A program made the translations under genes and the position numbers. A stretch of 28,039 nucleotides of DNA. It comes from Candidatus Omnitrophota bacterium (GTDB lineage Bacteria; Omnitrophota; Gorgyraeia; Zapsychrales; Zapsychraceae). Shown here piece by piece: positions 8,344 to 23,201 of this stretch; the first letter of the stretch is position 1, and every line of letters begins with the position of its first letter. Location: assembly GCA_018399915.1 (NCBI GenBank), contig JAGYNW010000001.1:1-28039 (forward strand), written 5' to 3'. The notes beneath the pieces are model-generated. The model was not told the DNA's origin. It ran no database searches and saw nothing but the letters and a program-made list of their open reading frames with translations.

Positions 8344-9655
8344 TTTTCTTAACCTTACGTTTTTTGAGCCGCGGATTATTTTGCGGGGTCAAGGAAATCT
8401 GTTCGTCGTGGTCAGCCAAAAGGCTGCAGATGCCGATGGATTTATCCTCATTCGCCGGATTCAAATCAAGGTGCAGTTTGCAGACATCGCATTTGCGGTC
8501 ACAAAAGATCGGCTTATAGGAATCCGGCTCTTTATAAGTGGTGATCACGCCTTCGTAGTTGCGAAGGATGACCTTGTTGGTGGACCAGGAGATCAGGTAA
8601 TTCGGCATGACCGGGATCTTGCCCCCGCCGCCGGGCGCGTCGATCACATAGGTCGGTACAGCCAGGCCGGAGGTGTGGCCGATCAAGTGTTCTATGATCT
8701 CAATGCCCTTGCCCACAGGCGTGCGAAAATGCATCAGCCCCTCGGAAAGATCGCATTGATACAGATAGTAAGGCCTGACCCGGTTCATGAGCAGGCGCTG
8801 ATTGAGCGCCTTGATAATGCGCGGACAGTCATTGATGCCGGCCAAAAGCACAGACTGGTTCCCCAGAGGAAATCCCGCATCTGCCAGTTTCGCCAAAGCC
8901 TTTTCCGAGGAATGCGTGATCTCGCGCGGATGATTGAAATGCGTGTTGATCCACAAAGGCTGGTATTTCTTCAGCATGGCCACCAATTCATCATCGATAC
9001 GGTATGGCAGGACCACCGGAGTACGCGTGCCGATCCGGATGATCTCCACATGCTTAATGGCCCGCAGCTCCTTAAGGATCCAGTCCAGATAATCGGTGTT
9101 CAACAAAAAGGGATCACCCCCGGATAAAAGCACGTCACGGATCACCGGATTCTGCCGGATATAATTAAGGCCTTTTTTGATCTGCACCTTACTGGGCACG
9201 TAATCACAGTCCCCGACCTTGCGTTTGCGGGTACAATGCCGGCAGTACATGGAACAGACATTGCTGACCAGAAACAACACGCGGTCCGGATACCGGTGGG
9301 TAATGCCCTCGACCGGGCTGTCCTTATCCTCATGCAGAGGGTCCTGCAAATCCTCATTGCTGCGGATCAATTCCTCCGGGGACGGACAGGATTGCATAAA
9401 GATCGGATCGTACTTAAGATTATCGGCATCCACCAAAGACAAGTAATACGGCGTGATGCTCATGGGAAAAGTCTTCATGGTCTTTTTCATGGCCACTTTC
9501 TGGGCCTTGTCAAACTTGACACCCAAAAGCTGTTCAAGCACTTCAATCTCATGGATCTGGTGCTTCAACTGCCAACGCCAGTCATGCCAGAGGTTGACAT
9601 CGTCCTTTGCCGCAATCATGGTTTTCATCTTCTTTTGTTTCTCGGTTATTTTCAT
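8333..9655 (-). CDS. ablA: Lysine 2,3-aminomutase (KamA/AblA radical SAM, PLP-dependent)
   Basis: [30 protein letters not shown] (CxxxCxxC), [29 protein letters not shown] (PLP Lys), C-terminal CDRKCDVC extension, and adjacency to ablB. Confidence 0.95.
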
Positions 9656-11551: not shown

Positions 11552-12946
11552 TTAAATTCCGGAAGATGGCTTTGAGGCGGATGCCTGGGATGCCTTTTGT
11601 TTGACGCGGACAAAAGCCTCTGCGTGGTCTTTCCCCTCATTTAAAGGGTTCAGGGACTTGACGATCGTCAGCTCGGGGTTATCTTTCAAGGCGATCATCC
11701 GGCAGGCATCATCAACCAGGACCTCGACATCCGGGGTGTCCCGGTCAGCGGGGCACTGCGCCGCCACCATCGCGACCCGTCCGTCGCTCAACTCAACCAG
11801 GGCGCCGTTAGGCCAAACCCCCATGAAGGCGAAAAAGGCATCAAACAATTCCGGATCAAACTGGGTGCCGCGCCCGCCTTTCATGATCTTGTAAATCTCT
11901 TCAGGCGGATAGGCATTCTTGTAGCTACGACGCTGGCTTAAGGCGTCGTAGACATCGCACAAAGAGACCATCTGGGACCCCAAGTGCAAAGGATGAGCAA
12001 ATTGCAACTGCGGGTAACCGCCGGAGGCATCGTACTTCAGGTGGTGTTCCAGGGCCACCACCGCCGGCAAAACCCCGACATTGTCCACAAAGGACAATAA
12101 AATGCGGGATCCCAAAAGGGAATGACTTTTGATGCTCTCAAATTCCTGTTCGGTCAGTTTACCGCCTTTCAGAATCGCATTGGAAAGGTAAAGTTTGCCG
12201 ATGTCGTGAAAAAGCGCGGCAATCCCGAGATTGCGTGCCTCCTCCCGAGGCAGGCCCAAATACTGAGCAAAATACACGCTAAGCATGGCTACGTTTAAAA
12301 CATGCGCGTAGGTAAAATCATCCTTGCCCTTGACCTGGGACAGCTTGAGAATCTCCTGATAATGCATGCCCAACCCTTTCATCAGGCTATCGATCGCAAG
12401 GTACACGTTGGCAAAATTCACAGACTTATCATCTACAATGCTTTCAATGGACGCGGAAACTTTCGCCAGGCTTTCCGTGTAGATCTCAGCCCCCGGCAGT
12501 TCAACCGAGTCCAAGCCTTCCGGGTCAGGATCCTCACTCTCAATGCGGATCTTGTCCGCGACGATGTTGCGGATGTCTTTGCTCGCCAAATAATCACGGA
12601 TACCGATCTGTTCGCAGGCCGGGTCCAGAAAAAACAAGGCAAAATCCTTAAACTCCAGCGGGCTAAGCCCGGCCCGAAAGGTCAGCTTACTGATCTGCCT
12701 GTCTGTCAGCAACTGGATGAACACACTCAACTGCCGGCTTAAGTCAAAAAAAATATCCTCCCCACTAACGATCTCATCCCCGACAACGGCAATGACCAGT
12801 TCCGGCTGCTTGTCCAGGATGGCCTTAAGGTCAGCAAAACTCTTTTGAATGGCCCGGCCCACTTCCGGATGATTGTGCCGGTAAATCCGCGCCAGCTGCG
12901 GACAAGAGGCAAAACTTTTCAAAAAGGTTTTAATTTGTTCGATCAT
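11552..12946 (-). CDS. HD-GYP domain cyclic dinucleotide phosphodiesterase with an uncharacterised N-terminal domain
   Basis: FTYAHVLNV, ALFHDIGKL, HSLLG, EHHLKYDASGGYP, CDVYDAL..RRSYK, GTQFDP, WPNGALVELSDG. Start overlaps the upstream gene end by 17 nt. Confidence 0.9.
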   Translation of the reverse strand: MIEQIKTFLKSFASCPQLARIYRHNHPEVGRAIQKSFADLKAILDKQPELVIAVVGDEIVSGEDIFFDLSRQLSVFIQLLTDRQISKLTFRAGLSPLEFKDFALFFLDPACEQIGIRDYLASKDIRNIVADKIRIESEDPDPEGLDSVELPGAEIYTESLAKVSASIESIVDDKSVNFANVYLAIDSLMKGLGMHYQEILKLSQVKGKDDFTYAHVLNVAMLSVYFAQYLGLPREEARNLGIAALFHDIGKLYLSNAILKGGKLTEQEFESIKSHSLLGSRILLSFVDNVGVLPAVVALEHHLKYDASGGYPQLQFAHPLHLGSQMVSLCDVYDALSQRRSYKNAYPPEEIYKIMKGGRGTQFDPELFDAFFAFMGVWPNGALVELSDGRVAMVAAQCPADRDTPDVEVLVDDACRMIALKDNPELTIVKSLNPLNEGKDHAEAFVRVKQKASQASASKPSSGI

Positions 12947-15095: not shown

Positions 15096-16994
15096 ATGCC
15101 AGAAAATCATGACCTCGCTCTTATTCTGTCGAAATGCAATGAACACAATCAAGGCAAAATCCGTCAGATCAGCAACCAGGACATTTTAGCTGTTATCGCC
15201 GACAGGATAAAACTTTGCAATCCGGACAACCTTTTTATCCACACAGGAAGTGATGCCGACTGCCTGCATATCAAAAGAATGGCTTTAGCTACCGGCGAAG
15301 AACAACCGTTGAAAATGGAAGGCCATACCGCGCATTTCGATCCTCCCACAGAACAAGGCCGGATCGTCAAACAAACCTACGCAGTCGCTGATGAAGGGGT
15401 TTACACCAGCAGCCTGGCCAATGCCATGCCGCGGCCGGAGGCCACTGACCTTATCCAGAAATATATGAAGGACATCATGACCGGAAAGACCCTGATCGTG
15501 GGATTTTTTATCCGGGGGCCGATCGGTGCGCCGATCTCTTATCCGTCTTTGACTTTTTCCGACTCCTGGTACCTGATGCACCAACAAAACAACCTCTACC
15601 GCAAAAACCCGGCCTATTTTGAAAAACAAGTTGATCTGATCGGATTTTTCTTTACCAATACCCACAGCAAGGGCACTCTGAACACCAAAGAAGCCTATGT
15701 GCTGACTGACCGGAAGAATAAAGAAACCTGGGCCTGGAACGTGTCTTATTTAGGCAATTGTGCCTTGATCAAAAAAGGCCATCACCGGCTGGCCAACGAT
15801 GACGCCATCTACAATCACCGCGGTAAACGCCTCAGCGAACATATGTTCATTACCGGCATCACACTGAAAGACAACACCACCATATGGATCAATGGTGCGG
15901 CCCCCAGCGGCTGTGGTAAGACCACGACCGCCATGGCCGGGGATTCCTTTATCGGCGATGACCTGGCCCAAGTCTGGATCGATGATGACGGGCTGATCCG
16001 TTCCGCCAACCCGGAAATCGGTATTTTCGGGATCATCAAGGATGTTAATCTCGAAAGCGATCCGCTTTTGATGGAACGCCTCCGCAATCACGGATCCGAG
16101 GTCATCTGGACCAATGTGCTTCTAGCCAACAAAACCCCCTACTGGGAAGGCAGCCATGAAAGCATCCCTGAAAGCGGGACAAACTTCCAGGGCGAATGGT
16201 TCAAAGGCAAAAAAGATGCCAACGGCAATCCCATTCCGATCTCGCATCCCAATGCCCGTTGCACCATCCGGAGCAATCAACTTAGAAATTTTGATGAAGA
16301 ATCCGCCAATGACCCCAATGGTGTTGAGACCAAAGTCTTTACCTACAGCGGACGGGATGCCGATACCATGCCCCCAGTCATCGCCGCCTTAACCCCGGAA
16401 GAAGGCGTGACCTTTGGCGCGGATATCGCCTCGGCCACCACCGCGACCGAGGTCGGGTCCAAAGGTGATGTCAAGCGCTCTCCCTGGGCCAATGCGCCCT
16501 TCTTTTTAGGCGCTTTAGGGGAATACATGGATGGCCAATTCAAATTCTTTACCAATCCCGAGCTCAAAATGAAACCTGTCCTGGCCTCTCTGAATTACTT
16601 TTTGACGGATGCGGCCCGCGGCGGCAACTCCCAAGACCTGTTAGGGGAAAAACGGGATGTCACGGTCTGGCTGACATGGCTGGCCAAACTTGCCCATGAT
16701 GAGGTTACCGGCCTGAAAACACCCTTGGGCATCATCCCCACCTTCAAAGAGGTCAAGGCGATTTTCGATCAACTGATCCCGGACAAAGGCTACACCAAAG
16801 AACTTTACGAAAAACAATTCTCCCTTTATGTTGATAATGTCATTGCCAGGATCGATATGCAGGTGGCTGCCTACCAAAAAGAGGTCAATGTGCCTGAGAT
16901 CTATTTTAAAACCCAGGCAGCCAAAAAGGCCCGGCTGGAAAAGCTGAAAGCCGAAAAAGGTGCGATCGTGACACCGGATCAATTAAGCGCCTGA
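15096..16994 (+). CDS. pckG: Phosphoenolpyruvate carboxykinase (GTP), divergent
   Basis: LSEHMFI, kinase-1a APSGCGKTTTAM, GDDLA, NPEIGIFGI, HPNARCT, SGRDADTMPPV, patterns of the GTP-dependent PEPCK family. Confidence 0.9.
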   Translation: MPENHDLALILSKCNEHNQGKIRQISNQDILAVIADRIKLCNPDNLFIHTGSDADCLHIKRMALATGEEQPLKMEGHTAHFDPPTEQGRIVKQTYAVADEGVYTSSLANAMPRPEATDLIQKYMKDIMTGKTLIVGFFIRGPIGAPISYPSLTFSDSWYLMHQQNNLYRKNPAYFEKQVDLIGFFFTNTHSKGTLNTKEAYVLTDRKNKETWAWNVSYLGNCALIKKGHHRLANDDAIYNHRGKRLSEHMFITGITLKDNTTIWINGAAPSGCGKTTTAMAGDSFIGDDLAQVWIDDDGLIRSANPEIGIFGIIKDVNLESDPLLMERLRNHGSEVIWTNVLLANKTPYWEGSHESIPESGTNFQGEWFKGKKDANGNPIPISHPNARCTIRSNQLRNFDEESANDPNGVETKVFTYSGRDADTMPPVIAALTPEEGVTFGADIASATTATEVGSKGDVKRSPWANAPFFLGALGEYMDGQFKFFTNPELKMKPVLASLNYFLTDAARGGNSQDLLGEKRDVTVWLTWLAKLAHDEVTGLKTPLGIIPTFKEVKAIFDQLIPDKGYTKELYEKQFSLYVDNVIARIDMQVAAYQKEVNVPEIYFKTQAAKKARLEKLKAEKGAIVTPDQLSA

Positions 16995-17024: not shown

Positions 17025-18527
17025 TTAACTCTTGATCCAGGCCACAATCATGTACCATCGGGCATTGCTTCCGATCATGCCAGGCGGCATATTGTTCACT
17101 GTCTCCGGGACCTGAAAAATCGCCGGGACATTGGTGCCCATATCAAAATAATTAGAAACAATGGTTCCCACCAGATCTGTCTGCTTGGAAACCGCCATGG
17201 TGTTTTCGGCGTAAAAAACCCCCATCACATCCAGCCCTGCCGCGTCAATATTAATATTATTCGGCGTCATGATTCCGATAATATTATTCGGGAAAGACGC
17301 TGCCCCGCTGGTCACCAGGCTGGTCTGAATATTGACATCCCCGGTCACAAGCAAGGAGCCTGTACCGGAATAGGTGATCACATTATTACTGGTATGTTTG
17401 GTCATCAAAATATCATTGCCTTCATCCACGTATACAATTCCGGAAACCGACAAATTGCCCGCACCATCCATACTGATACTGCCGTTGGCATCGGCATAGG
17501 AAAAGGAACTATTCGGTTTGATATTGGTTAATTCACTGGTCAAAACCAGGGCATTCGCCTTTAAATAGTCCTGATAAGTCGCGTAGGTGGCATAAGGGTC
17601 TGACAAACTGGGAAAATCTACGGCATCACCCAGATCATAGGCGCTGGCAGTTCCGTTATCAGAATGCACACTTATGGCGCCCTGATTGCCGCCCCATCCA
17701 TCTGTCACAAACACACCATCCACGGTCTCCTTGTACGCATTACCGGCGATATCGGCTTCACCCACCGTGGAAGACCCACTCAACCCCACTGTTCCCCGTT
17801 TCACGCGCAACTCAGCGCTCAAGGTCTCAACGGTCTCACCATTGTAACTGATCGTGGGTAATGCCGGGACCAATGCCTGTAATGCCGCGGGCATGGTACT
17901 GTAATTATTGCCCACCAACTCGGCGGTCCCTCCCAAATCCACAGCAAAATCCCCGGGGTTCAGGCTGCTGCCCAGGATGTGGACAGATCCGCGGATATCC
18001 ACATTCCCGTTGACCATAGTGCCGGATGCACCACTGCCGGCAAAAATCGCATTGTTCCAGGGAGAAATATCAATCATGCGCACATAGGCATCAATCGTGT
18101 GCTCAATATCATCGATAGTCCCCACCGAACGGATCCAGACATCATCCCGGCCGGCCACATTCTTTAAAAAAACCGTAAAACTCCCGCCATTGATGGCGGT
18201 AGCATTGTGCGGCAAGGCGTAATAATTGACTGTGTCCGGTCCCACCGCCATTCCGTTAATATCACCGTCAGCCCAACTCGGGGTTCCGACCGCGTCAACA
18301 AAATCCTTGCGCAGGTCATAAAGCCCCTGTTCCAATCCGGCCTCGGCGATATTAAAAGCCACCGTAGCCCGCCGTTGCCTTTCGGAAACCTTGCCCTCAT
18401 TAACGGCCAAAACCGACAAGGCCGCCCCCAATCCGATCAGAATAACGATCACAAAATACGAAATGATCAACATGCTGCCCCGTTCGTTGGCCAAAAGTCT
18501 GTTTTGTAAAAACATTTTTTGTTTCAT
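17025..18527 (-). CDS. PilX-like minor pilin with a large C-terminal beta-rich domain
   Basis: NERG|SMLIISYFVIVILIGLG class III-type signal lacking E5 (PilX hallmark), AFNIAEAGLEQG PilX_N motif, long Gly/Asn/Ser/Thr-rich C-terminus. Confidence 0.85.
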   Translation of the reverse strand: MKQKMFLQNRLLANERGSMLIISYFVIVILIGLGAALSVLAVNEGKVSERQRRATVAFNIAEAGLEQGLYDLRKDFVDAVGTPSWADGDINGMAVGPDTVNYYALPHNATAINGGSFTVFLKNVAGRDDVWIRSVGTIDDIEHTIDAYVRMIDISPWNNAIFAGSGASGTMVNGNVDIRGSVHILGSSLNPGDFAVDLGGTAELVGNNYSTMPAALQALVPALPTISYNGETVETLSAELRVKRGTVGLSGSSTVGEADIAGNAYKETVDGVFVTDGWGGNQGAISVHSDNGTASAYDLGDAVDFPSLSDPYATYATYQDYLKANALVLTSELTNIKPNSSFSYADANGSISMDGAGNLSVSGIVYVDEGNDILMTKHTSNNVITYSGTGSLLVTGDVNIQTSLVTSGAASFPNNIIGIMTPNNINIDAAGLDVMGVFYAENTMAVSKQTDLVGTIVSNYFDMGTNVPAIFQVPETVNNMPPGMIGSNARWYMIVAWIKS

Positions 18528-18528
18528 G

Positions 18529-19083
18529 TCAGTTCCTCAATTCTATTTGAAAATCCAGATCCATATTCAAGACCTCGTCGGTCAACCCAACAGTGTCTTG
18601 CGCGCGCAAAGCCACCTCCAGGATGTCGGCTTGTGTCGATAAACGCCGGAATTGCATTGATTGCATATTTTGGCTCAGGATCTGCGTTGTCCCCCCGCGG
18701 ATTTTATGTAACTGTTTTCCGTCTGTTCCCCCTAAGGTATATTGAATGGAATTCGCATCCCAGGTGATGATCCCGCCGGTAACCGTGGAAGGCACCTGAA
18801 ACGTTATGGTCGAATACCAGGTATCATCTGCCGGCACATCGGCGATAGAAGCATTTCCTGCCTGCCGCAGATCATTGATCATCATCTCCATGGATTTGCG
18901 CAATTCCTGACGCAATCCGATCCTGACCTCATTGGTCGTCCAAGACCTTTGCCCCACCACGATCACTGCCAAAAGCGCGGATGAAAGAATGGAAAAAATA
19001 AAAACCGAGACCAAAAGCTCGGATAAAGACATCCCCTTGCGATTTTTTAAAAAACGTCTTTTATGGATATCGCTTTTTTTCAT
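18529..19083 (-). CDS. PilW-like prepilin (type IV pilin N-terminal methylation site)
   Basis: NRKG|MSLSELLVSVFIFSILSSALL with E5, followed by ...LRKSMEMMINDLRQAG. Confidence 0.85.
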   Translation of the reverse strand: MKKSDIHKRRFLKNRKGMSLSELLVSVFIFSILSSALLAVIVVGQRSWTTNEVRIGLRQELRKSMEMMINDLRQAGNASIADVPADDTWYSTITFQVPSTVTGGIITWDANSIQYTLGGTDGKQLHKIRGGTTQILSQNMQSMQFRRLSTQADILEVALRAQDTVGLTDEVLNMDLDFQIELRN

Positions 19084-19087
19084 AACC

Positions 19088-19549
19088 TCAGCGCCTCGTA
19101 TAATAAGTAACTAACCGGACCGGAGAATCGATCTTGCCGTTGGCATTGACATCTTCACCTGTGTCCAGTACACCATTCAAGTTCAAATCTTCCCCGATAA
19201 CCCTGTCATATTTGTCTTTCCAGCAGATAACGACTTCAATCTCTAATAACTCCGGGTTACTGGAATCAAGATGAATGACACCCTTACCCGCTAATAAGGA
19301 GGGCGTAAAGGTGTTGCCCGGTGTCCCCCCGCTGGCATAAAGCGTCGGGATATTGACAAACCCGGCTGACCGGATCTCTTCAATCTTGGATTGCGCCTCT
19401 GATACCGCCGCGGTCTTGTTACCCGCCATTTCAGACAAGGCATTGGTATGTATAAACAATTGCAGAATACTAGTTACGGATACCGCCAGAATACCCAAAA
19501 GCACAACCAATTCCGCTAACATAAAACCCTTGTCATTCTGTTTCATCAT
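19088..19549 (-). CDS. PilV-like prepilin with a C-terminal tandem Ca-binding-like repeat
   Basis: NDKG|FMLAELVVLLGILAV with E5, AVSEAQSKIEEIR, EIEVVICW. Start placed at ATG 19549 with AAAGGA 8 nt upstream; the ORF-track ATG at 19567 directly abuts the terminator U-tract. Confidence 0.85.
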   Translation of the reverse strand: MMKQNDKGFMLAELVVLLGILAVSVTSILQLFIHTNALSEMAGNKTAAVSEAQSKIEEIRSAGFVNIPTLYASGGTPGNTFTPSLLAGKGVIHLDSSNPELLEIEVVICWKDKYDRVIGEDLNLNGVLDTGEDVNANGKIDSPVRLVTYYTRR

Positions 19550-19567
19550 GGAAATGTTCCTTTGCAT

Positions 19568-19601
19568 AAAAAAAACCTATCCATTCATTTAATGGATAGG
19601 T
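19568..19601 (-). terminator. Intrinsic terminator in the pilin operon leader (riboswitch expression platform)
   Basis: Minus strand ACCTATCCATT-AAATG-AATGGATAGGT with the T run continuing to 8 T in total, ending about 18 nt before the PilV-like start codon. Confidence 0.88.
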
Positions 19602-19614
19602 ACACGAAGCCTCC

Positions 19615-19716
19615 GATTTTTCTTCGGCAGCTGGCAACCCCGCTGATCGATAAGTGCAGGGCCCTGTAGCTTTGCGTCCCATCCTTACGAATGGTTTGCC
19701 TTTGATCGAAAAAATC
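19615..19716 (-). ncRNA. c-di-GMP-I (GEMM) riboswitch aptamer
   Basis: Minus strand GATTTTTTCG-ATCAAA-GGCAAACCATTC-GTAA-GGATGG-GACGCAAAGCTACAGGG-CCCTGC...GCGGGG-TTGCCAGCTGCCGAAGAAAAATC. It has the GGCAAACC and GGGACGCAAAG conserved blocks, a GNRA-capped P2, P3 and a UUCG/CGAA P1. Closely resembles the Vc2 aptamer core. Confidence 0.95.
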
Positions 19717-19740
19717 CCAAAACAATTTTTCTCTACTAAA

Positions 19741-19770
19741 AGTATAAAACATTTTTACCAAGGATTGCAA
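19741..19770 (-). promoter_or_regulatory. sigma70-type promoter upstream of the riboswitch / pilin operon
   Basis: Minus strand TTGCAA-N18-TATACT, about 25 nt upstream of the aptamer P1. Confidence 0.65.
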
Positions 19771-19843
19771 TGTTACAAAAAAATGCGGAAAATTCCCGGG
19801 AACCAGGCTCACGCATTGAATGGGATAAAAATGCGCGCTTCGG

Positions 19844-20536
19844 TTAAGGACGCACAATCGATTCGATCTCACAGCGGTCATCATATATCTTCTCCTCGGT
19901 CAACTCACCCTTCACATTATAACTACGCTTGTAACCGCCATCAAGCTCATTGGTCAAAGCCCATTCGTACATGAGTGTGCCGTCACGGTAATACGTTTTC
20001 CCCCATCCGGCCTCAGGGTCGTCGCAAAGCAAAAGGGCATCAAAAACATTTTCTTCCATGCGCAAGGTGCCGTCATAATAGTAATCACGCACCGAAATGC
20101 GTTTGCCCTGATAATAATCCGCCTCACGCGCCACCTGCCCATTATCATAATATTCTACATACGGACCGTGCCGTTTTCCATTGCTGTAATGTTCGTAACC
20201 ATAAGTACCTTTGGATTTTCTTTCAAATTTTACCTCTCCGTCCGGGATCACACCCTCGATGTCAAAGATCTTTTCCCTGATATTCTTGAACCGGGCCACC
20301 TCCTGACCATCAATTAAAAAAATATTTTGCTCAAACTTACGGTTAGGTTCCCAACGCACCTTGCGGACCACATCATCATAACGCGTTTTTTTCCTGATAA
20401 CCGGTTTGGGCACAGGTGTCCTGACAACCCGGGGCGGGGTCTCTTTCTGAACATCCGCTATCTGCCGGTTAATGATGCCGTTAATCACGATAAAGATAAC
20501 AAACAAAACACCAAAAACAATAAGGGTTTTTTTCAT
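19844..20536 (-). CDS. Membrane-anchored MORN-repeat (YwqK-like) protein
   Basis: N-terminal hydrophobic helix, then repeats YSNGKRHGPYVEYYDNGQV, YYYDGTLR, YYRDGTLM, YNVKGEL. Strong GGAGG RBS. Confidence 0.8.
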   Translation of the reverse strand: MKKTLIVFGVLFVIFIVINGIINRQIADVQKETPPRVVRTPVPKPVIRKKTRYDDVVRKVRWEPNRKFEQNIFLIDGQEVARFKNIREKIFDIEGVIPDGEVKFERKSKGTYGYEHYSNGKRHGPYVEYYDNGQVAREADYYQGKRISVRDYYYDGTLRMEENVFDALLLCDDPEAGWGKTYYRDGTLMYEWALTNELDGGYKRSYNVKGELTEEKIYDDRCEIESIVRP

Positions 20537-20756: not shown

Positions 20757-23201
20757 ATGCCATCAAAAAATTTTAAATGTTTATTGATCGCGGATTACAA
20801 TTCAGACGTTCTACTCATCCGCTCCACCCTGGGTATTGAAGAAATTGCCCTGGAATGGATGTCAGAAATCCCCCAAACGGTCACCCCTGAAGCCTTGCAA
20901 ACCAAATTTGACATCATCCTCTTAGACCTTGATTTCTGGAAATCTGATTTTATTATGAAATTCAACAAACTGGCTGAACAGACCGAAGGCATCCCTATCA
21001 TTGTCCTGAACAGTCTGGAAAAAGAAGCCATTGCTTTGTCCCTGAACAAATTCGGGGCGTGGGATACCATGACCAAACCGCAAATAACCAAAAAAACCTT
21101 ACTGCAATCCATCAGACACGCGGTTACCTATCGAAAATGCCGGGAAGAACTCCAAAACTCTGAACTGCGTTTTAAAAGCCTTTCCCAGTTCTCGTTTAAC
21201 TGGGAATACTGGCAAGACCCGGACGGCTCCATGCGTTACGTTTCCCCGGCCTGCGAAGAGATCACGGGTTACACAGCCGAAGAGTTTATTCAACAACCCT
21301 CTCTCCATAAAATGATCATTGCCATTGAAGACAAAAAGATATTTTCTGACCATATTAAAAGACGGGAACACACCAAAGGTTTTTTAAAAGTCCGCTTTCG
21401 CATACGCAAAAAGGACGGTTCTTACTGCCTGATCGAACACCGCTGTCAGGAGATCCTTGATCCGGACGGCAGATATCTCGGCCTGCGTGTTTCCTGCCGC
21501 GACTTATCCGAACTTCGAATCAAAGAGCAGTTACGCAACCTGTCAACGGCTGTAGAACAAAGCCCGGCATCCATCATTATTACAAATATTGAAGGCACTA
21601 TCGAATATGTCAACAACTGGTTTATCGAAACGACGGGATACTCACGCGATGATGTTTACGAACAGAATGTCAGCATTTTAAAATCCGGTAAAACACCCAA
21701 AGACCTTTACAAAGACCTGTGGGCAACCATTACCGCCGGAAAAAAATGGATGGGCGAGATCTATAACAAAAAAAAAGACGGAGAATTTTTCTGGGAATAC
21801 TGCTCCATTTCTCCCATCATTGATGACGAAAATAATATCACGCATTTTTTGGCGGTCAAACAGGATATCACAGCTCAAAAGGAAGAAGAGAAGCAACTTA
21901 TCCATCAAGCCAACTACGACACGCTCACGGATCTGCCTAATCGGTCCCTCGCCTTAGACCGCATTGATCAAGCGATCTCCATGGCCAAACGAAAAAATAC
22001 GATCGTGGGAGTCATGTTCGTTGACCTTGATCAGTTCAAGATCGTTAATGATACTCTGGGGCATGAAATGGGTGATAAACTTCTGGTGGAAGCCGCCCAA
22101 CGGCTCAAAGAATGCTGCCGTGAAAGCGATACCGTCGCCCGTTTCGGCGGGGATGAATTCCTGGTTGTCATGCCGGGACTGGAAAGCCTGGACGATACCT
22201 CAATACTCGCCCGGAGGATCCTGGAATCTTTTCAAATCCCTTTTCAACTGGGAAACCAGCAGGCATTTGTGGGTTTAAGTATCGGCATTACCGGTTATCC
22301 TCTTGATGGCAATGACGCGCAGATCCTTTTAAGGAATGCGGACACCGCTATGTATCACGCCAAAGAGGCCTCCCGCAACACCTATCGTTTTTACACCACT
22401 GAAATGAACTCCAAGGCGGTCGAACGTATGAATATGGAGGGCTATTTACGCGCGGCTTTAAAAAACAAAGAATTCCTGATCTATTATCAGCCGATCATGA
22501 ACATGCGCAAGGTCATTGTTGGACTGGAATGCCTGTTGCGTTGGAATAGCCCAGAATTAGGCATGGTCTCCCCTATGAATTTTATTCCCCTGGCGGAAGA
22601 AACCGGGATCATCAATTCAATCGGAGAATGGATGCTTCATGAAGCCTGCTCCCAGGTCAAATTATGGATGGATAAAGTCAAAAAACCATTGCGCCTGGCT
22701 ATCAATGTGTCCTCCCGTCAGTTCCGTGAAGGCACCCTGCTCAATACCATTGATGAGGCCTTAAAAGAAAGTGATTTTCCGTCTCATTTGCTGGAACTGG
22801 AAATTACCGAACGCATGCTGCTTCAGGATGTTCCCCAAACAACCTTGATGCTCACTGATCTGCATAACCGGGGGGTACGCCTCGCCATCGATGATTTCGG
22901 GACCGGATATTCTTCCTTAAGCTATTTAAAGAAATATCCCTTTACCACCCTCAAAATCGACAAGGCCTTCATAAGCGAAGTAACTGTTAATGATGATAGC
23001 TCAACCATCACCAAGACCATTATCTCTATGGGGCACAGCTTAGGACTAGAAGTCGTGGGAGAAGGCGTGGAAACAGCTGAACAACTCACTTATCTAAAGA
23101 ATAATCACTGCGACCTGGTGCAGGGGTTTTACTTCAGCAAACCCCTGCCGGCCGACAAATTTTTAAACCTTTTGGGCGAATACTATCCTGTAGTCAACTA
23201 A
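20757..23201 (+). CDS. REC-PAS-PAS-GGDEF-EAL diguanylate cyclase/phosphodiesterase
   Basis: REC-like N-terminus (ILLDLDF..IPIIVL..TKP), two PAS/PAC domains (YVSPACEEITGY; YVNNWF..TGY..W.GE), I-site RESD, RFGGDEF, ECLLRW (EAL variant), IDDFGTGYSSLSYL, EGVET, QGFYFSKP. Confidence 0.95.
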   Translation: MPSKNFKCLLIADYNSDVLLIRSTLGIEEIALEWMSEIPQTVTPEALQTKFDIILLDLDFWKSDFIMKFNKLAEQTEGIPIIVLNSLEKEAIALSLNKFGAWDTMTKPQITKKTLLQSIRHAVTYRKCREELQNSELRFKSLSQFSFNWEYWQDPDGSMRYVSPACEEITGYTAEEFIQQPSLHKMIIAIEDKKIFSDHIKRREHTKGFLKVRFRIRKKDGSYCLIEHRCQEILDPDGRYLGLRVSCRDLSELRIKEQLRNLSTAVEQSPASIIITNIEGTIEYVNNWFIETTGYSRDDVYEQNVSILKSGKTPKDLYKDLWATITAGKKWMGEIYNKKKDGEFFWEYCSISPIIDDENNITHFLAVKQDITAQKEEEKQLIHQANYDTLTDLPNRSLALDRIDQAISMAKRKNTIVGVMFVDLDQFKIVNDTLGHEMGDKLLVEAAQRLKECCRESDTVARFGGDEFLVVMPGLESLDDTSILARRILESFQIPFQLGNQQAFVGLSIGITGYPLDGNDAQILLRNADTAMYHAKEASRNTYRFYTTEMNSKAVERMNMEGYLRAALKNKEFLIYYQPIMNMRKVIVGLECLLRWNSPELGMVSPMNFIPLAEETGIINSIGEWMLHEACSQVKLWMDKVKKPLRLAINVSSRQFREGTLLNTIDEALKESDFPSHLLELEITERMLLQDVPQTTLMLTDLHNRGVRLAIDDFGTGYSSLSYLKKYPFTTLKIDKAFISEVTVNDDSSTITKTIISMGHSLGLEVVGEGVETAEQLTYLKNNHCDLVQGFYFSKPLPADKFLNLLGEYYPVVN

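Follow-up and report, generated by a model that had tools for sequence, protein, structure and literature searches.

We analysed a 28,039-nucleotide (nt) stretch of DNA (the window; contig JAGYNW010000001.1, positions 1 to 28,039) from a Candidatus Omnitrophota metagenome-assembled genome (MAG; GCA_018399915.1, 2.28 Mb, 79% complete). On the minus strand, a cassette of three minor-pilin genes is preceded by a leader RNA that is, by its sequence and predicted fold, a class I cyclic di-GMP (c-di-GMP) riboswitch with predicted ligand binding. The leader is very probably a working c-di-GMP riboswitch for the minor-pilin operon. It probably acts on transcription as a c-di-GMP-I (GEMM-I) riboswitch of the OFF type, in which c-di-GMP would stop transcription ahead of the three genes.

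The window was searched with all Rfam families by cmscan, and RF01051 (c-di-GMP-I) was the sole family above its gathering score. The match covered positions 19710-19623 (-) and the whole model (1-87 of 87) with 64.4 bits and an E value of 1.1e-10, against a gathering cut-off of 35 bits; the GEMM aptamer named in the original prediction was thereby confirmed. RF01051 was also the top-scoring member of clan CL00126 on the aptamer stretch, and the variant families RF03167 and UAU therefore fit no better. For a transcript ending at 19615, the canonical three-helix aptamer was the minimum free energy (MFE) fold at -30.8 kcal/mol (Table 1), and the limits first given for the aptamer (19716-19615) correspond to P1 with two possible outer pairs. 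In 18 related aptamers 94.7% of cells were paired and 11 pairs carried compensatory changes, compared with 27-48% paired in slid alignments, the aptamer alignment itself having been fitted to the model.

The ligand-contacting positions were located from the Rfam alignment, in the numbering of Vc2. The equivalent of G20 was G19700 (model position 11), that of A47 was A19673 (the first A of GCAAAG), and that of C92 was C19627 (first C in the 3' tail, GCCGAA). One guanine of the ligand is recognised by the Hoogsteen edge of G20 and the other forms a pair with C92, and the GEMM-Ib RNAs, which sense 3',3'-cyclic GMP-AMP (cGAMP), have A at position 20 (PMC6140456). The window's aptamer has G19700 at that position, as did all ten lineage aptamers aligned. 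Because G and C stand at the G20 and C92 positions, c-di-GMP is predicted over cGAMP, and the specificity first claimed on this ground is sound as a prediction. Another register of P1, CGAU (19708-19705) with AUCG (19617-19614), was rejected, since it would leave 10 unpaired nt after C92 and the MFE favours the 8-bp P1.

The aptamer lies within a leader that was read from promoter to start codon. The promoter TTGCAA-18-TATACT matched 9 of 12 consensus positions, a match that by itself is at chance level (13 sites found versus 7.4 +/- 2.9 expected in the region). The heptamer TATACTT was exact in 11 of 19 aligned leaders, with a one-base variant in seven more, and stood 12-30 nt 5' of the aptamer. 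On the minus strand between the -10 box (19741) and the ATG, no other promoter-like site was found. The terminator hairpin had by itself a predicted energy of -12.4 to -14.6 kcal/mol; 17 nt separate P1 from the terminator and 19 nt separate the U tract from the ATG. The positions of promoter, terminator, ribosome-binding site and ATG in the original prediction were borne out, the promoter through the conserved -10 box in the orthologues. The weak hairpin between the MORN-repeat gene and the promoter suggests that the cassette is a separate transcription unit. An earlier start at ATG 19567 (open reading frame (ORF) 19088-19567) was rejected, as it lies inside the terminator U tract without a ribosome site, and the orthologues start 6-10 residues before GF(T/M)L. 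The ORFs 19585-19884 (-) and 19654-19974 (+), which overlap the leader and the MORN gene, were regarded as having arisen by chance. At the other end of the cassette, a PEPCK gene on the opposite strand converges on it.

To model switching, transcripts with different 3' ends were folded. When the transcript ended at 19602, the linker GGCUUCGUGU was paired in the MFE fold with ACGCAAAGCU, the junction that holds A47. With the end at 19590, the MFE was a 16-bp helix of 19684-19668 with 19611-19594 that captured the terminator 5' arm CCUAUCC, and past the terminator 3' arm the MFE was the terminator. The antiterminator duplex reached -23.1 kcal/mol versus -14.2 +/- 2.6 in shuffles, of which 2 of 300 were as good. 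When the terminator 5' arm was added, the fold of the window's leader was stabilised by -5.4 versus -1.6 +/- 1.3 (z -2.8; none of 40 shuffles as good). The terminator 5' arm also paired with aptamer nucleotides in the truncated MFE folds of 19 of 26 orthologous leaders as well as in the window's own. Of the 28 leaders read, 18 retained the CCUAUCC arm, though the third protein of the cassette is just 45-67% identical among them. Its partner was the P2 3' arm GGAUGGG in the window and the P3 3' strand GGAUAGCC in most relatives. In most relatives (leaders L028-L075, e.g., L061 842-898) the terminator 3' arm GGAUAGG(C) nearly repeats this P3 strand, so that a single 5' arm has two possible pairing partners; in the window the CCUAUCC arm is retained but P3 differs, and GGAUGGG of P2 is used instead.

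These folds are consistent with the following course of events. Transcription would start about 7 nt past TATACT, and we infer a start near 19734. The aptamer (19714-19619) would be transcribed first and could fold and bind c-di-GMP. If the ligand were absent, 19611-19594 would invade the aptamer core at 19684-19668 and form the 16-bp antiterminator, which would sequester the terminator 5' arm and let the polymerase read through into the pilin genes. If c-di-GMP were bound, the core would be locked and the 5' arm free, the terminator (19601-19575 and eight U) would form and transcription would stop, so that the operon would be off at high c-di-GMP.

Comparison of relatives linked the leader to the cassette. 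The three-gene cassette was present in 19 of the 19 relatives' loci examined first. A covariance model was built from the ten lineage aptamers and searched against 79 loci. Among 48 cassettes with P0003 (third-gene) orthologues of at least 45% identity and enough upstream flank, the aptamer was directly 5' in 21 and farther upstream, before a longer pilin operon, in six; the remaining 21 had none. All of the 23 more distant cassettes (Hydrogenedentota, Armatimonadota, Nitrospirota and others) lacked it. All orthologous aptamers were on the coding strand, and in nearly every orthologous leader the aptamer was followed by a terminator.

The three genes encode pilin-like proteins, in agreement with the minor-pilin operon first proposed: P0001 and P0002 have prepilin N-termini, P0002 has the GspJ/EpsJ fold and P0003 is a homologue of ComZ. 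P0001 was conserved in 18 orthologues, and its family profile matched pilins in the PDB through the N-terminal helix. The label "PilV-like" given to it earlier has only loose support, the matches being weak, sub-threshold ones to ComGE and XpsI. At residues ~118-142 P0001 carries an acidic stretch, GEDxDLDGxLDxGEDxNxNG, that resembles a calcium-binding loop; five of 19 orthologues (L014, L015, L017, L018 and L023) lack the whole block. The P0002 model had a predicted local distance difference test (pLDDT) score of 88, and its best folds were EpsJ, XcpW and GspJ at a probability of 1.00. The N-terminus of P0003, RG|SMLII, is without Glu at +5; Glu5 is likewise absent from GspK- and PilX-type large minor pilins. 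A P0003 profile from 18 orthologues matched ComZ (6qvi_A) with an E value of 3.7e-20 and 75 bits over query residues 53-348. The P0003 model matched ComZ in Foldseek with an E value of 1.4e-10 over ~550 columns, with a template-modelling (TM) score of just 0.33 because residues 154-306 were poorly modelled.

A ternary model of the soluble parts of the three chains scored 0.83 versus 0.62 for the best control. Of 80 solved complexes 58 reached the mark applied, as did 2 of 110 mismatched pairs; these counts hold roughly because the alignments were self-made. Runs shared at least 72% of contacts, and partner pLDDT was at least 86. The model fits a predicted tip or priming complex, and the three products, a small pilin of GspI/PilV size, a GspJ-like pilin and a large ComZ-like pilin, probably assemble together at a predicted position on a type IV filament, its tip.

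Several observations weigh against an OFF-type riboswitch serving this operon and its tip complex. In the aptamer, six nt rather than the five of Vc2 stand between P1 and G20. The GUAA loop on P2 is seen, and the 11-nt tetraloop-receptor motif of the Rfam consensus (CUAAG...UAUG) is absent from P3, which aligns there with low posterior probability. In the switching model, the full-length terminator state is ~9 kcal/mol more stable than the antiterminator (-50.9 versus -42.0), and read-through without ligand therefore depends on kinetics, which folding energies do not capture. The search for expression evidence recovered small shares of the stretch (0.18, 0.11 and 0.06 of the words sampled), all stored as contigs, the one RNA run included, a form of data that does not reveal transcript start, end or level. 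A shuffle test of the terminator arm alone was weak over 27 leaders (mean z -0.57; 6 of 27 significant); it was replaced by a duplex test that took in the linker and loop, which gave a mean z of -1.34, with 10 of 27 leaders beating 95% of shuffles. The 21 orthologous cassettes without the aptamer mean that riboswitch control is dispensable. Among the proteins, the P0003 model is poor in residues 154-306, and the margin of the ternary model (+0.21) is the smallest allowed. The GspI-J-K and XcpVWX complexes are already solved, so the ternary pass may merely reflect likeness to them rather than binding.

The sign of the switch was considered in the light of these energies. The same riboswitch could work in the opposite direction, with c-di-GMP preventing termination and turning the pilin genes on. 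Both signs occur among GEMM-I riboswitches, pilM being ON and Cd1 OFF (PMC9262584), and the terminator forms at equilibrium even without ligand, so that the sign is not readable from energies alone. However, the P1 3' strand (19626-19619) and the terminator stem (19601-19575) have no nucleotides in common, and a bound aptamer therefore leaves the terminator free. Only the aptamer core competes strongly for the terminator 5' arm, and ligand binding would lock the core and so remove this competition; for this reason c-di-GMP should favour termination. An ON switch is therefore unlikely, and the OFF direction, as modelled by folding, is the likely one.

It is still less probable that the leader has decayed or become blind to its ligand, with the terminator acting as a constitutive attenuator, or the true promoter lying downstream, and the aptamer no longer regulating. 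Almost half of the orthologous cassettes do without an aptamer, the promoter match alone is at chance level and the terminator is the most stable state. However, the aptamer scores nearly twice the gathering cut-off and keeps all ligand-contacting bases, its helices covary among relatives, the -10 box 5' of it is conserved, and the minus strand from 19741 to the ATG offers no promoter-like site. A ligand other than c-di-GMP, such as cGAMP or another dinucleotide, is very improbable: GEMM-I folds have been re-tuned in nature (GEMM-Ib for cGAMP; the Rfam variants RF03167 and UAU) and the window's P3 departs from the consensus, but position 20 is G rather than A, with A at 47 and C at 92 (PMC6140456), RF01051 outscores the variant families of its clan on the aptamer stretch, and GGDEF, EAL and HD-GYP enzymes are encoded in the window.

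RF03167 (c-di-GMP-I-GGC) has, as read from its model consensus, G in place of A47 (GCGAA); the window's aptamer scores better with RF01051 and has A at position 47. RF03167 gave a slightly higher score for some of the sister copies, both in the MAG and among relatives, but they too have A at 47 and were rejected as true GGC variants.

Table 1. Features of the leader and the pilin cassette in window coordinates, followed by insert-bearing aptamers in orthologous loci (locus coordinates).
Feature	Position	Strand	Basis or detail
Weak terminator-like hairpin and T run, after MORN-repeat gene and before promoter	19779..19798	-	stem 19798-19786, 5 pairs, tail CATTTTTTTG
-35-like hexamer TTGCAA	19765..19770	-	TTGC-type boxes at similar distance in several orthologous leaders
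-10 hexamer TATACT, 18-nt spacer	19741..19746	-	conserved in orthologous leaders
c-di-GMP-I aptamer including P1	19619..19714	-	RF01051 match, MFE fold, covariation in orthologues
Aptamer P1	19714-19707 with 19626-19619	-	MFE, 8 bp
Aptamer GC clamp, 2 bp	19699-98 with 19675-74	-	MFE
Aptamer P2, closed by GUAA loop (19688-19685)	19694-19679	-	MFE
Aptamer P3	19671-19629	-	MFE
Antiterminator 5' strand (P2 3' arm, A47 junction, P3 start)	19668..19684	-	predicted; pairs with 19611-19594 in MFE of transcript ending 19590
Antiterminator 3' strand (linker GGCUUCGUGU and terminator 5' arm CCUAUCC)	19594..19611	-	predicted; folding and duplex test
Intrinsic terminator	19568..19601	-	11-bp stem 19601-19575, 5-nt loop, eight T to 19568
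Ribosome-binding site AAAGGAA, 7 nt 5' of ATG	19557..19563	-	read from sequence
Gene 1, P0001, 153-aa small minor pilin	19088..19549	-	N-terminus MMKQNDKG|FMLAE, prepilin cleavage motif
Gene 2, P0002, 184-aa GspJ/EpsJ/XcpW-like minor pilin	18529..19083	-	KG|MSLSE; N_methyl 27 bits
Gene 3, P0003, 500-aa ComZ-like large pilin	17025..18527	-	pilin N-domain, beta-rich body; PilX_N weak
Terminator-like hairpin, likely operon end	16959..16975	-	~50 nt past gene 3 stop
Two-hairpin-insert aptamers	L027 170-323, L029 1744-1877, L033 1723-1904, L036 1721-1833, L045 1707-1865, L063 1591-1763; also L009, L010, L012, L022		

The window's leader was compared with known systems. The precedents cited in the original prediction, in Clostridioides difficile and Geobacter, exist: in C. 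difficile, Cd1 switches off with c-di-GMP, and the pilM riboswitch of Geobacter metallireducens is an ON switch for cGAMP (PMC9262584). Cd1, which precedes the flgB flagellar operon, resembles the window's leader in that an intrinsic terminator comes after a class I aptamer, ahead of a surface-appendage operon, and ligand favours termination there (PMC9262584), as is predicted for the window's leader. The two differ in their genes and host, flagellar genes for Cd1 and minor pilins of an uncultivated Omnitrophota for the window's leader, and the antiterminator predicted for the latter is built from the P2 3' arm and the A47 junction. The RF01051 prototype, Vc2 of Vibrio cholerae, shares with the window's aptamer the three-helix fold, G20, A47, C92 and a GNRA loop on P2 (PMC6140456); the window's leader has one extra nt between P1 and G20, a P3 without the tetraloop-receptor motif and a clear terminator as its expression platform. 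The pilM riboswitch, of GEMM-Ib, likewise places a GEMM-I fold before type IV pilus genes (PMC9262584), but it has A20, senses cGAMP and turns on, whereas the window's leader has G20 and is a predicted c-di-GMP OFF switch.

For the encoded proteins, the closest systems are ComZ with PilA2 (PDB 6qvi and 6qvf) and the type II secretion tip complexes GspI-J-K and XcpVWX. The latter share with the cassette the GspJ/EpsJ fold of P0002 and the gene order of a small, a medium and a large pilin, the last without Glu5. ComZ of Thermus thermophilus, a large pilin whose body is a beta-solenoid, has been argued to bind DNA and to be placed, together with PilA2, at the tip of the pilus (PMC6561018). P0003 is homologous to ComZ at 19-21% identity. 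The ComZ-like tip is described here as a putative DNA- or surface-binding module. We know of no riboswitch reported at the Thermus ComZ locus.

The window also encodes c-di-GMP enzymes. A REC-PAS-PAS-GGDEF-EAL gene (20757-23201, +) is divergent from the MORN/pilin region, and an HD-GYP-type phosphodiesterase gene (11552-12946, -) lies 5.5 kb downstream; the presence of both indicates that the cell makes and breaks c-di-GMP. The MAG contained at least 10 T2SSE/PilB-type ATPase genes above the Pfam cut-off, which points to several type IV filament systems, and a prepilin peptidase gene was present. Six GEMM-I matches were found in the MAG. The five outside the window were considered as pilin regulators and rejected, as none of them precedes a pilin gene. 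Two further ORFs with a P0003-like N-terminus, on contigs C79 and C50, were without an aptamer match, an arrangement compatible with the switching of pilus tips suggested in the original prediction. On contig C224, two GEMM-I aptamers stand in tandem ~160 nt apart (8610-8686 and 8373-8451, -; L002 and L106), 5' of the gene for a secreted beta-propeller protein (724 aa, with NHL repeats) and of an ORF longer than 1100 aa with a weak hydrolase match.

Omnitrophota is a phylum of very small, possibly host-dependent cells. One tentative and rather doubtful extension of the results is that c-di-GMP riboswitches in this phylum govern the choice of tip module on a type IV filament, the cassette with the ComZ-like tip being made only at low c-di-GMP, while the P0003-like cassettes on C79 and C50 have no aptamer nearby. 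If this were true, c-di-GMP would act through RNA to change what the pilus does, be it DNA uptake or attachment. With the leader, a connection from c-di-GMP to the make-up of the pilus tip becomes testable in a phylum without a cultured model, and the ~27 related leaders allow the wiring of one aptamer class to a terminator to be compared. The riboswitch class, the ligand logic, terminator platforms and the association with pilus genes are already known, and the gain is therefore one of breadth, not principle. The literature searched contained nothing on riboswitches in Omnitrophota, nor on c-di-GMP riboswitches with minor pilins for this system.

Some arrangements in relatives were observed alongside. 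The MORN-repeat gene (window 19844-20536, -) is a conserved upstream neighbour of the cassette, and in several relatives (L016, L019, L024 and L026) it directly adjoins the first pilin gene or overlaps it, with the riboswitch absent between them. In the six relatives with the aptamer farther upstream (L041, L044, L065, L061, L101 and L057), the riboswitch stood 1.6-2.6 kb 5' of the ComZ-like gene and preceded a gene for a PilA-like major pilin (130-167 aa) or a 240-285-aa membrane protein, after which the cassette followed. Three of these (L041, L044 and L065) share the window's P2 sequence CCAUUCGnAAGGAUGG.

Other orthologous aptamers were enlarged. Two extra hairpins were inserted between GAC and GCAAAG, beside A47, and the hairpin sequences differed among genomes; these aptamers (Table 1) scored 27.8-29 bits, below the Rfam gathering score. 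In L041 and L049 the two-hairpin insert came instead after GCAAAGCUAU, and in L060/L021 and L033 inserts were found in the P2 5' arm. In one relative (L038 5297-5391 / L014 3794-3876) the cassette was closely followed by a second GEMM-I aptamer, which stood before another gene cluster; among the products of that cluster is a 579-aa protein whose N-terminus is P0003-like.

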